From positions 7,098-71,097 of the forward strand of contig JAQBNI010000024.1 in the NCBI GenBank assembly GCA_028288625.1: a stretch of 64,000 bases of DNA. Direction: 5' to 3'. A program made the position numbers and the translations under genes. Positions 34,339-46,122 of the stretch are shown here, in pieces (within the stretch, counting starts at the first letter, position 1; each line of letters starts with the position of its first letter). Under the pieces are notes generated by a model. The model was not told the DNA's origin, ran no database searches, and saw only the letters and a list, made by a program, of their open reading frames with translations. The DNA is from Bacteroidota bacterium. GTDB taxonomy: Bacteria > Bacteroidota > Bacteroidia > Chitinophagales > JADIYW01.

Positions 34339-34902
34339 ATGGAAGAAGACGTACAAATGATCCTTGATGAAACAAAGGATTCCATGTTTAAGGCAATAAA
34401 GCATCTTGAAGAAGAATTGCGAAAGGTGCGTGCAGGAAAGGCAAGTCCTGATATGGTGCAGGGCATCAACGTAGAATATTACGGAATACCTACTCCTATC
34501 AACCAGATTGCAAGCATTAAATTACTCGATGCGAGAACACTGGTGATCGTTCCGTTTGAAAGAAAAATTATCGGCGATGTGGAACGTGCGATCTTTCAAA
34601 GCAACATGGGTATCACTCCACAAAATGACGGTGAAAATATCCGCTTGTCTGTTCCCCCGATGACTGAAGAACGCAGACGCGAATTAGTGAAGCAATCTAA
34701 GAACCACGGCGAGCAAACAAAGATCGTTATCCGCAATGCACGCAAAGATGGAAATGAAATGGTAAAGAGTTTGATTAAGGATGGCTTAAGCGAAGACCTC
34801 GGAAAGAATGCGGAAGATGCGATTCAACACCTCACTAACGATTATATTACTAAGGTGGATAAGATGCTCGTTGAGAAAGAGCAGGAAGTAATGACTATTT
34901 AG
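34339..34902 (+). CDS. frr: ribosome recycling factor
   Basis: VRAGKASP, VEYYG, PQNDG, PPMTEERRRELVK, IRNARKD. Confidence 0.97.
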   Translation: MEEDVQMILDETKDSMFKAIKHLEEELRKVRAGKASPDMVQGINVEYYGIPTPINQIASIKLLDARTLVIVPFERKIIGDVERAIFQSNMGITPQNDGENIRLSVPPMTEERRRELVKQSKNHGEQTKIVIRNARKDGNEMVKSLIKDGLSEDLGKNAEDAIQHLTNDYITKVDKMLVEKEQEVMTI

Positions 34903-35023
34903 ATCACGTTATCAGATCACGGATCACAGTATTCCTAAATCGAACGAATCTTCTTAATGATACGACATTAATTTCCTGATAACATTGCGGTGAACTGTGA
35001 ACTGTGAACCGCGAACCGTGAAC
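34901..35023. repeat. inverted heptamer-array element, left copy (TCAC-type arm ... GTGAAC-type arm)
   Basis: agatcac..agatcacggatcacag followed by gtgaactgtgaactgtgaaccgcgaaccgtgaac. Confidence 0.8.
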
Positions 35024-35062
35024 AACTATTGATCTTTCCCTCACACTTTCGTAAATTTAAAT

Positions 35063-35377
35063 ATGAAACCTGCAAAGGTCATATTAGCAATCATTATTCT
35101 CATCGTCATTTTCCTTACCTCATGTATCAAGGATGACTATCCTGCGAAAGGCTTTCTCGTCAGATATGATCCAAGGGATTGTGCTTGCTGCGGTGGATTA
35201 TTCGTAAACCTCAATAATGTTGATACCGTAAACACAAGTACAAAACTCGTAAATAGTTTACCGGTGGATTTTGTTTTTGATCAGAGTGAATTACCGTTAA
35301 AGGTTCAGTTTGCCTGGCAAAACGGTGGCGGCTGTATGGCAAATAATATAATTATCACGAAGATTAAGCGAAGATAA
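35063..35377 (+). CDS. small hypothetical lipoprotein with CACCGG motif
   Basis: Lipobox LTSC; D.R.CACCGG motif; 104 aa. Confidence 0.72.
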   Translation: MKPAKVILAIIILIVIFLTSCIKDDYPAKGFLVRYDPRDCACCGGLFVNLNNVDTVNTSTKLVNSLPVDFVFDQSELPLKVQFAWQNGGGCMANNIIITKIKRR

Positions 35378-35468
35378 GGTTCACAGTTCGCGGTTCACAG
35401 TTCACAGAAAATATAATTACTCATTTAAGAAGATATGGCAGTGATCCGTGAACTATCAGCTGTGAACT
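35378..35468. repeat. inverted heptamer-array element, right copy
   Basis: 35379-35407 is the reverse complement of 34995-35023 at 28/29 nt; outer arm cagtgatccgtgaact..ctgtgaact. Confidence 0.8.
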
Positions 35469-37509: not shown

Positions 37510-37539
37510 AGTTGTAAGTCGTAAGTTGTAAGTCGTAAG
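37510..37539. repeat. heptamer tandem repeat (AGTYGTA)x4
   Basis: AGTTGTA AGTCGTA AGTTGTA AGTCGTA AG immediately upstream of the rng start. Confidence 0.8.
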
Positions 37540-39058: not shown

Positions 39059-40123
39059 ATGTCATTTTCTTTCTCTAAAATATTGATGGAATGGTACGAT
39101 CCAACAACCAGGAATCTTCCATGGAAACAAACCGGTGACGCCTATAAAATATGGCTGTCTGAAATTATTATGCAGCAAACACGCGTTGAGCAGGGCACAC
39201 CATATTATTTGTCTTTTGTAAAACAATATCCCACAGTAAAAAAACTGGCTGCTGCGCCTTTAGATGAAGTTTTAAAATTATGGGAGGGATTGGGTTATTA
39301 CTCGCGCGCAAGAAACCTGCATTATGCAGCAAAGCAGGTAATGACAGAACACAAAGGAAAATTCCCTTCAACACATAAAGAAATATTGAAATTAAAAGGG
39401 ATCGGTAGTTACACTGCTGCTGCCATTTCTTCCTTTGCTTACAACTTGCCTCACGCGGTCCTGGATGGAAATGTTTTTCGCTTTCTCTCAAGAGTATATG
39501 GTATTGAAACACCTGTCGACTCAACAGCCGGCAAGAAACAATTTGAAAACCTCGCGACTCAGCTGCTCAACAAAAAAGATCCGGCATTATACAACCAGGC
39601 GATCATGGATTTCGGTTCGCTCGTATGCAAACCCAAAAATCCCTTGTGCACTGCATGTCCTTTCAGCAGTCATTGCAAGGCGTTGGAATTAAATAAAGTG
39701 CAGCTTCTCCCTGTTAAAGGAAAAAAACTCATCAAAACGGAAAGGCATTTTCATTACCTCGTTTTATTTGATGCGAAGCATATCTATATAAAGCAAAGGG
39801 AAGCAAATGATATCTGGAAAGGATTGTTTGAATTTCCGATGGTTGAGGAGGTCGACAGTCCACGGGCGACAGTCCACAGTAATATTTTCAAAAACATGGA
39901 TGGGGTTCCAAACCGTGGACTGTGGACTGTGGACCATCGACTTTCCTACAGACAAACCCTCACCCACCAACTCATCAACGGTCATTTTTATGAGCTAAAA
40001 ACCAAAAAGTTACTTGCTGCAAATACAGGTTACCTTAAGATCTCAAAAGATTCCATCAGTAATTATGCGTTTCCAAAAATTGTCCGCACTTATTTGCAGG
40101 ACAGATTAAATTTTTTATCTTAG
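39059..40123 (+). CDS. mutY: A/G-specific adenine glycosylase MutY with an in-frame repeat-derived segment
   Basis: WLSEIIMQQTRV, WEGLGYYSRARNLH, HhH LKGIGSYTA, LDGNV, Fe-S cluster C..C..C..C, WKGLFEFP. Confidence 0.96.
   Translation: MSFSFSKILMEWYDPTTRNLPWKQTGDAYKIWLSEIIMQQTRVEQGTPYYLSFVKQYPTVKKLAAAPLDEVLKLWEGLGYYSRARNLHYAAKQVMTEHKGKFPSTHKEILKLKGIGSYTAAAISSFAYNLPHAVLDGNVFRFLSRVYGIETPVDSTAGKKQFENLATQLLNKKDPALYNQAIMDFGSLVCKPKNPLCTACPFSSHCKALELNKVQLLPVKGKKLIKTERHFHYLVLFDAKHIYIKQREANDIWKGLFEFPMVEEVDSPRATVHSNIFKNMDGVPNRGLWTVDHRLSYRQTLTHQLINGHFYELKTKKLLAANTGYLKISKDSISNYAFPKIVRTYLQDRLNFLS
39851..39941. repeat. inverted heptamer-array element (AGTCCAC / GTGGACT) inside mutY
   Basis: Arms 39851-39879 and 39913-39941 are reverse complements at 23/29 nt. 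Confidence 0.82.
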
Positions 40124-45301: not shown

Positions 45302-45763
45302 ATGGCAAATACCTATACACAAATATATATTCAAATTGTTTTTTGTGTGAGCAGAAGACAAAGCCTCATTTCTAAAGACAATAAAGAAGAATTGCATAAA
45401 TATATTACCGGTATTATCCAAAACAGAAATACAAAATTATTAGCCATTCATTGCATGCCTGATCATATACATATTTTGATCGGAATGAAACCAACCATCT
45501 TGCTCTCTGATCTTGTAAGAGATATAAAGGCTGGATCATCAAAATTTATTAATGATAGTAAATGGATAAAAGGAAAATTCAGCTGGCAGGAAGGCTACGG
45601 TGCATTTTCATATTCTCATTCACAATTAAACAATGTGATCAACTATATTAATACGCAGGAAGATCATCACCAAAAAAACTCATTCAAAGAAGAATATTTG
45701 GATTTACTGCAAAAATTCGATGTCCAATACAACGATGAATATTTATTTGAATGGATAGAATAA
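45302..45763 (+). mobile_element. tnpA: IS200/IS605-family Y1 (HUH) transposase TnpA, no tnpB, REP-associated
   Basis: HUH motif PDHIHIL, K..SS, WQEGYGAFS, catalytic YxxxQ (YINTQEDHH); intact 153-aa ORF. Confidence 0.9.
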
Positions 45764-45769
45764 CAAGAC

Positions 45770-46122
45770 CTATAAACAAACGTCTCTACGAGACACACCG
45801 GAATTCGTAAGATTATCAGACCGCTCCTATGGAGCTTGTTTTTCTATTTATATTTATCTATAACAGAATGTCCCTATGGGACTATGACGTTCAGAAATAA
45901 ACTATATCCAATGTAATGAGCTCCGTTGGAGCGATTCGATTACATTACAAGTAGGGGATTGAGATTACATTACAAGTAGAGGGATTGTATAATTACAAAT
46001 TGAGCTCCGTAGGAGCGACCCGACTATAGCAATAATATAATTACAATTTTTGCTCCATAGGAGCAACCTATTTATAGCATATCCGGAATTTAATAATAAA
46101 GCCCTGTAGGGGCGACCTGATT
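45770..46122. repeat. REP-like hairpin cluster right of the Y1 transposase (7 units)
   Basis: Units at 45782, 45823, 45870 (reverse) and 45920, 46004, 46052, 46101 (forward); internal tandem duplication of gattacattacaagtag at 45938 and 45963. Confidence 0.88.

Follow-up and report, generated by a model that had tools for sequence, protein, structure and literature searches.

Inverted heptamer-repeat arms read in frame within a mutY gene of a Bacteroidota bacterium

Heptamer repeats have long been known in bacteria and are still unexplained; in cyanobacteria they are called STRR. Heptanucleotide arrays are described with the units GGGAATC in Xanthomonas and GGGGA(C/T)T in Nostoc, with a preference for four units, with convergent inverted pairs (70–75 in xanthomonads) and with 7–11% of the arrays there inside genes (PMC4692102). 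TAACTGA arrays are described from Beggiatoaceae, Cyanobacteria and Bacteroidetes, before start codons and in few cases inside ORFs, with 10 interior sets in Maribeggiatoa (PMC4679880). Rickettsia palindromic elements (RPEs) are given as inserts of about 150 bp that encode a conserved peptide (PMC10969869). Hairpins and heptamers also meet in two RNA settings. The 23S rRNA intervening sequence with an S23p/PF05635 ORF has terminal inverted repeats, a 28-bp stem and tandem heptamers upstream of the ORF (PMC4990558), and in the P6b loop of the Nostoc tRNA-Leu intron degenerate heptamers pair as a hairpin and two repeat classes have been exchanged at one position (PMC3488679). An Avd pentamer has been shown on an RNA stem-loop (10.1101/2023.10.23.563531). 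In a literature search with most subscription journals outside reach, neither same-site turnover of heptamer arms in proteins nor a PF05635–heptamer system outside rRNA was found.

The DNA analysed (the window) is a stretch of 64,000 nt from contig JAQBNI010000024.1 of assembly GCA_028288625.1. It contains mutY on the plus strand at 39059–40123, encoding an A/G-specific adenine glycosylase of 354 amino acids, and the ORF is unbroken throughout, arm region included. Pfam matches to HhH-GPD, HHH and NUDIX_4 were obtained. Residues E35 and D136 and cysteines C190, C197, C200 and C206 are conserved in a 50-sequence alignment; in MutY the first two are catalytic and the cysteines are those of the Fe-S cluster. 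As judged from sequence, HhH-GPD domain, Fe-S cysteines, C-terminal NUDIX-like domain and intact frame place the protein in the MutY class. Its homologues carry the label Chitinophagales in their source records. An AlphaFold model computed from the 50-sequence alignment (pLDDT 88; TM 0.89 to the solved MutY 6u7t) was used, and a single-sequence model (pLDDT 38) was discarded. The modelled protein has a loop at 265–271, a helix at 272–279, a loop at 280–291 and a strand at 292–300, with pLDDT 53–66 for residues 261–290.

An inverted pair inside mutY had been described in an earlier note at 39851–39879 and 39913–39941, with 23 of 29 positions complementary, a 33-nt spacer and an open frame, and all these figures were reproduced exactly. 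A second measurement gave 39851–39880 and 39912–39941 with 80% complementarity. In register with the arm models, the arms lie at 39850–39879 and 39913–39942, each of four heptamers and two bases. The left arm (plus strand) consists of the family-C heptamers GGTCGAC, AGTCCAC, GGGCGAC and AGTCCAC, followed by AG, and occupies codons 264–274, that is, the predicted loop and the first turn of helix 272–279. The right arm consists of four family-C heptamers and GG read on the minus strand and occupies codons 285–295. It ends 16 nt before the L-T-H motif, where the best score was also located in 10 of 14 arm-bearing genes. The 33-nt spacer (39880–39912, plus strand) is non-repetitive host coding DNA with no four-helix-bundle ORF, and it encodes residues 274–285, predicted as most of the helix and part of the next loop. 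In the structure model, then, the arms would cover mainly two loops and the spacer would code for most of the helix between them; its length and position suggest descent from the ancestral helix. The arm region translates as VDSPRATVHSNIFKNMDGVPNRGLWTVDHR.

In 150 codon shuffles of mutY, the best inverted pair reached only 17–20 of 29, compared with 23 of 29 in the real gene. The predicted RNA fold had an energy of -48.6 kcal/mol (z = -5.6), and none of 200 shuffles was as good. The two arms were no more alike than random arms from their subfamily. Rfam covariance models gave no match at E ≤ 1 between 34800 and 40300, and no target-site duplication was found at the mutY arms. The repeat feature in mutY is real and non-random.

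Lengths were compared for the MutY segment bounded by the EFP motif and L-[TS]-H. Loci were obtained for 30 of 61 genomes (its own, 28 of the genus and one of the family), and 160 further mutY loci gave 103 other distinct Bacteroidota segments after 54 were not parsed and three proved duplicates. The segment measures 40 aa here, 25–41 aa across the 30 genes and 40–41 aa in 71 of the 103. A period-7 array within it was absent from 101 of the 103, and the two holders were the closest hits. Because the arms came with no net gain in length, replacement is favoured over invasion: the data favour two 30-nt arms having overwritten the loops on either side of the predicted helix, with MutY not lengthened. 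The earlier note had proposed that a non-coding repeat element invaded or replaced a variable region of the NUDIX-like domain and created new protein sequence. Replacement and the creation of new sequence from a non-coding repeat family are supported and invasion is not, the segment having the modal length. The non-homologous stretch of about 30 aa that an alignment was expected to reveal proved to be overwritten loops and not an insertion. Nor is there a single element of about 90 nt, since each arm is a module in its own right and the DNA between the two encodes predicted helix.

The parallel with RPEs that was drawn at the same time holds for the outcome, palindromic repeat DNA read in frame in unrelated housekeeping genes and making new peptide. 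It is limited to the outcome because of the missing length gain, the independence of the arms and the lack of a target-site duplication. In anatomy the two differ: here, host sequence has given way to two separate 30-nt arms on either side of a host-derived spacer, with varied peptides and phases, and at mutY net insertion, target-site duplication and a conserved element or peptide are all lacking. The mutY arms belong to the known class of heptamer arrays, with an RPE-like outcome and a different anatomy.

Across this genome, 218 period-7 arrays were counted, compared with 2–26 for each of the periods 5, 6, 8, 9, 10, 11 and 13. Three modelled families comprise 274 arms (A, 121; B, 46; C, 107). 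Among the family-C arms, 74 of 107 have four units plus NG with sharp ends, and G stands at positions 2, 9, 16, 23 and 30 in 91–100%. Exact heptamer runs of three, four, five and six units numbered 25, 61, 5 and 1. All 74 four-unit C arms are distinct and are mosaics of few alleles per position. Among 65 cases of neighbouring arms within 200 nt, the order was left-to-right in 53 and right-to-left in three. The 13 pairs of four-unit C arms were matched in subfamily without exception, with 6.6 mismatches per 28 positions to the own partner and 6.1 to other arms. Spacers, measured between four-unit cores, ranged from 1 to 142 nt with no evident common sequence. Target duplications at 45 arm pairs (none in 30; 2 nt in nine; 3 nt in three; 4 nt in three) resembled the control (32.8, 7.8, 3.1 and 0.6), and no G-U strand bias was found genome-wide (36 vs 39, in 31 of the 45 pairs).

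Left arms tend to follow a stop codon (108 vs 13), right arms to precede a start (52 vs 8). No partner was detected for 132 of the 274 arms, and the polarity persists in these (50 vs 8 after stops; 32 vs 5 before starts). Of 286 arrays, 225 are intergenic or at gene edges. Family C departs from this pattern with 45 of 107 arms interior, followed by A with 11 of 121 and B with 1 of 46; these 57 arms well inside 38 ORFs are approximate counts, as the genes were defined with a simple script for ORFs. They are the many further cases that were returned by the genome scan for in-frame arrays proposed in the earlier note. The interior counts match the open-frame content of the families, as expected of a stop filter; family C alone is open in both orientations. 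Excess of period 7, four-unit preference, left-to-right order and intergenic or gene-edge position are STRR-like. With the published heptamer arrays, the arms have in common the 7-nt unit, the four-unit preference, convergent pairs, the position at gene ends, a minority in ORFs and an orientation filter by stop codons. They differ in that several unit families occur per genome, that these are mostly not G-quadruplex-like and that about 40% of one family lies in ORFs. Same-site unit turnover and the link to PF05635, described below, were not found in the parts of those accounts examined. Family-A units were also compared with the integron core-site consensus; the likeness was dropped, polarity being opposite and the other families not fitting.

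Near mutY, an intergenic left arm (34901–34929, plus strand, read directly) starts in the stop codon of an upstream 187-aa gene and has one unit of 6 nt. Arm models and reading further located a right arm of the TTCAC subfamily upstream of a 104-aa ORF (34990–35024, minus strand), a left arm right after the stop of that ORF (35378–35412, plus strand) and a right arm that closes a second hairpin (35441–35468, minus strand). The 104-aa ORF (35063–35377) has a lipoprotein-like N-terminus, is set between two complete heptamer hairpins and had no Pfam or NCBIfam match at the thresholds used. Further single intergenic arms of families C and B lie at 2927–2954 and 37510–37539. The kinship of the mutY units to intergenic GTGAACT arrays was borne out: those arrays (for example 2927–2954 and 34990–35024) form the TTCAC subfamily within the family of the mutY arms.

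The 30 mutY genes were scored with a profile of the other arms of the genome. Both arms were detected in 14 (7–45 bits, the best background score being -6.7), and the remaining 16 had neither. An assembly artefact, which had been named as a way in which the feature could fail, is refuted because 13 other genomes have arms at this mutY site. The distance from the right-arm end to L-[TS]-H is 16 nt in ten of the 14 genes, 22 nt in two and 12 nt in two. The left arm has its start at 8 or 11 nt in genes with phase 2 and at 9 or 15 nt in those with phase 0. The units vary by lineage (GTCCAC, GTCGAC, GTCAAT, GACGAT). Among database homologues, 20 of 44 distinct segments beat all 100 controls for both arms, and 19 remained after one (P0007) was discounted because both its arm scores fall on one stretch; one homologue fits the third reading phase, as read from protein sequence. 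Anchors at third codon positions were kept in 9/9, 9/9, 10/11, 9/11, 10/11 and 9/11 genes (82–100%; gene-wide mean 0.66), in a test that leans towards this result because genes and registers were chosen with the same model, and with one of these anchors mostly within a Trp codon. Arm peptides are 35–50% identical, compared with 76% for the whole protein.

A tree of masked MutY sequences unites the arm-bearing genes in a single, weakly supported clade (0.77), together with the arm-free gene of genome G005. A single arm-bearing clade makes one old origin with later turnover the simplest history of the mutY site. The arm region of mutY folds strongly in the genome under study (G000) and in G012, G019, G025, G028 and G024, with z from -3.2 to -6.6. 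Folding is absent in G004, G027, G023 and G006, whose z values lie between -0.9 and +0.6; the right arm in G004 is locally homogenised. Covariation of the two arms was not significant over 11 genomes (18.2 pairs with the own and 17.1 with cross arms, p = 0.06; p = 0.24 with G-U counted), and a conserved mRNA hairpin was rejected on the absence of covariation and of a G-U bias. Presence of mutY arms was not related to the array count of the genome (p = 0.56). The Nostoc intron resembles the mutY case in that hairpin-forming heptamers sit at a tolerant site; it differs in its non-coding host and variable repeat number, the arms here keeping four units and a fixed register. Two homologues (P0027 and P0037) have a quite different, G/P-rich and palindrome-like peptide at the arm site, which, from the protein sequence, suggests that this place in MutY has also been used by a different kind of repeat.

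Arms were also located in other protein genes. With looser settings, 61 arrays, some of them weak, were found in 45 ORFs; of the 32 of these ORFs that were searched with NCBIfam, 29 matched families, which include ValRS, IleRS, CysRS, NadE, NadD, Fmt, PyrD, PrmC, PriA, SucB, IcmF and GldA and are functionally unrelated. Site 1 of ValRS is a true in-frame insertion, with 29 aa here and 13–14 aa in 18 of the 29 rows that remained after a truncated one was set aside; arm-derived gains, some from other unit families, occur there in G025, G005, G030, G031 and G021. At site 2 of ValRS, length is kept (29–35 aa in 29 of 30 rows), with at least three unit families recognised by eye. The PyrD site has 45 aa here, 46 in G011 and 39–40 in five genomes that carry other units. 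In 16 of 30 genomes it has 31 aa, and many of these 16 show an AAATCTC-like run. The PrmC site has 48 aa here, 44 in nine genomes with a non-repeat insert and 29–34 in 19 of 29 (one fragment dropped), five of these 19 with a single family-B arm. At the PyrD, PrmC and ValRS sites, the unit family thus varies from genome to genome. The PrmC hits of G002, G020 and G022 that looked split proved to be unbroken ORFs, and on these the idea of host genes split at the arm site by a cargo cassette was rejected; the ValRS hit of G028 comes in two pieces. The SucB linker (L054, G000:C131:7511-8905) holds about five heptamer arms, one left arm being near-duplicated. Two related ORFs at the contig ends of C76 and C133 (L044 and L055) have no family hits, an identical ending and different arm families at one site. 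ValRS of G019 (L143) has two long non-heptamer insertions at both sites where other genomes have arms.

The four-helix-bundle family PF05635 was matched eight times in this genome. Among the seven matches listed, six are bracketed by inverted heptamer arms (three by arm models on both sides plus the gene on C149, and two by eye). The rRNA intervening sequence has the same layout; here the cassettes lie between protein genes, and the mutY copy is cargo-free and in a coding frame. One PF05635 protein of the genome matches PDB entry 2RLD, which has five chains. Among 120 genomes of the order, arrays (six or more hits) were present in 72 of 100 with PF05635 and in 2 of 20 without, as counted with a degenerate four-unit pattern that takes only B/C-like units, misses family A, counts overlapping matches and gave a high reversed-pattern control in some of the genomes, and with kin that are not independent. 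The pattern had 154 non-overlapping hits in the real and 3 in the shuffled genome G000. In genomes of up to 3.1 Mb, the numbers were 21 of 34 and 1 of 16, and five of the six genera that hold both states go the same way, the sixth being set apart by G090. Fewer than six hits were obtained in 28 of the 100 PF05635-positive genomes. The array-bearing, PF05635-negative G090 has a TIGR02436 hit above cut-off, and G123 has arrays with neither a PF05635 nor a TIGR02436 hit. Arrays in other genomes are long, not of four units. In G123, clusters of GTTAAT[GT] arrays lie a few hundred bases apart on contigs C185, C205 and C41. A PF05635 gene with an internal TGA (G000:C35:35474-35779) still lies between intact family-B arms. 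Of four GxxExxY/PF13366 genes (L160–L163), one has a modelled arm nearby; by eye, each appears to lie at a junction of co-directional genes with inverted or short-repeat flanks, mostly outside the modelled heptamer families.

The reading put forward here, with confidence evenly balanced, is that the mutY arm pair replaces two predicted surface loops and was written and rewritten by templated copying from the arm pool of the genome, probably as a side effect of a selfish system made up of a gene and repeats. Other arms of the genome would serve as templates, and the mutY arms would have been written and later re-written unit by unit in a gene-conversion-like step. The four-helix-bundle gene would be the typical cargo of the system and intragenic arms its by-product, with rewriting tolerated in flexible loops. 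Templated rewriting would explain the fixed-length mosaics, the subfamily-matched but non-mirror partners, the length-neutral overwriting and the unit switching at orthologous sites. Intragenic arms appear to persist only where a unit can be read through in frame and the loop is tolerant of change. We infer the copying step, the role of the pentamer and near-neutrality for MutY. Against templated copying, no copying event, donor–recipient pair or enzyme was found in this genome; for reverse transcriptase, which a DGR, retron or telomerase-like writer would need, the one profile PF00078 (RVT_1) had no match in its 161 contigs, 100% complete by markers. The weakly supported single clade means that one old origin with slow concerted drift also fits the mutY site. 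Fold-back copying of the first arm into the second was unsupported, partners being no closer than other arms.

As a tentative extension of templated rewriting, a pentameric, Avd-like PF05635 protein might, as part of a widespread selfish system, read the five anchors, 7 nt apart on the 30-nt arm, and promote the writing and swapping of arms at gene ends and in tolerant loops. If true, this would explain bacterial heptamer repeats, would give the orphan S23/IVP family a function and would mean that arm writing steadily supplies new peptide to essential enzymes, MutY and ValRS among them.

Selection for functional RNA is an unlikely explanation. The arms would then be five-anchor binding sites, either single-stranded or folded as a stem-loop, of a pentameric PF05635 protein that tunes translation or decay of mRNAs, that of mutY included. 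The five conserved G anchors per arm would suit such a protein, as would the match of a four-helix-bundle protein of G000 to the five-chain 2RLD and the related Avd pentamer, which touches its RNA stem-loop with all five protomers (10.1101/2023.10.23.563531). Partnerless arms are still gene-oriented (50 vs 8; 32 vs 5), but left arms of families A and B hold stop codons, so that stops alone can place them at gene ends. The strong mutY hairpin (z = -5.6) points the same way as the anchors; against a functional RNA stand the lack of significant covariation (p = 0.06; p = 0.24 with G-U) and of a genome-wide G-U bias, the loss of the fold in G004, G027, G023 and G006 and the armless G005 within the clade. 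The host genes, moreover, are functionally unrelated.

Ordinary heptamer microsatellites, arising by polymerase slippage and drifting neutrally under a filter of stops and protein tolerance, are a further doubtful account. Among the long simple repeats of bacteria, heptamers are the most frequent, and an origin by slippage has been proposed (Mrazek 2007, as summarised in PMC4679880 and PMC4692102); some arms are locally homogenised, such as the right arm of G004, and long pure arrays occur in other genomes. Slippage does not, however, predict the four-unit peak, the left–right polarity, subfamily-matched partners that are not copies or a vocabulary shared by unrelated loci.

A MITE of the RPE type, one element of about 90 bp inserted in frame by a transposase, is very improbable and for mutY is largely refuted. 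It would account for the inverted ends and for the true in-frame gains at ValRS site 1, PyrD and PrmC, but MutY gained no length, target duplication did not exceed the control at the 45 pairs, spacers vary from 1 to 142 nt, the four-unit C arms all differ, 132 of 274 arms are partnerless and no peptide is conserved. An artefact of assembly or chance has a negligible probability: orthologues refute the former, shuffles never reached the observed match, and arms can be fitted at this site in 13 other genomes and in 19 of the 44 distinct segments from database homologues.

The effect of the arms on MutY itself is probably small. The genus offers a tractable natural experiment on heptamer repeats, with fixed-length, polar arms swapped at orthologous sites of essential genes and with PF05635 as a candidate partner that tracks the repeats. 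Should the copying model be right, core enzymes would have whole loops exchanged at once and not altered by point mutation. Arm-bearing loops mislead protein alignments and trees.

A link to REP/RAYT systems was rejected, as none of the four Y1-transposase (PF01797) hits of the genome had a heptamer arm within 300 nt. The Y1 transposase gene of the window (45314–45658; L156 with flanks), with repeats at 45938–46079, has short flanking palindromes of the GAGCTCCGTAGGAGC type; it resembles a RAYT accompanied by REPs of its own and seems to have no connection with the heptamer arms.
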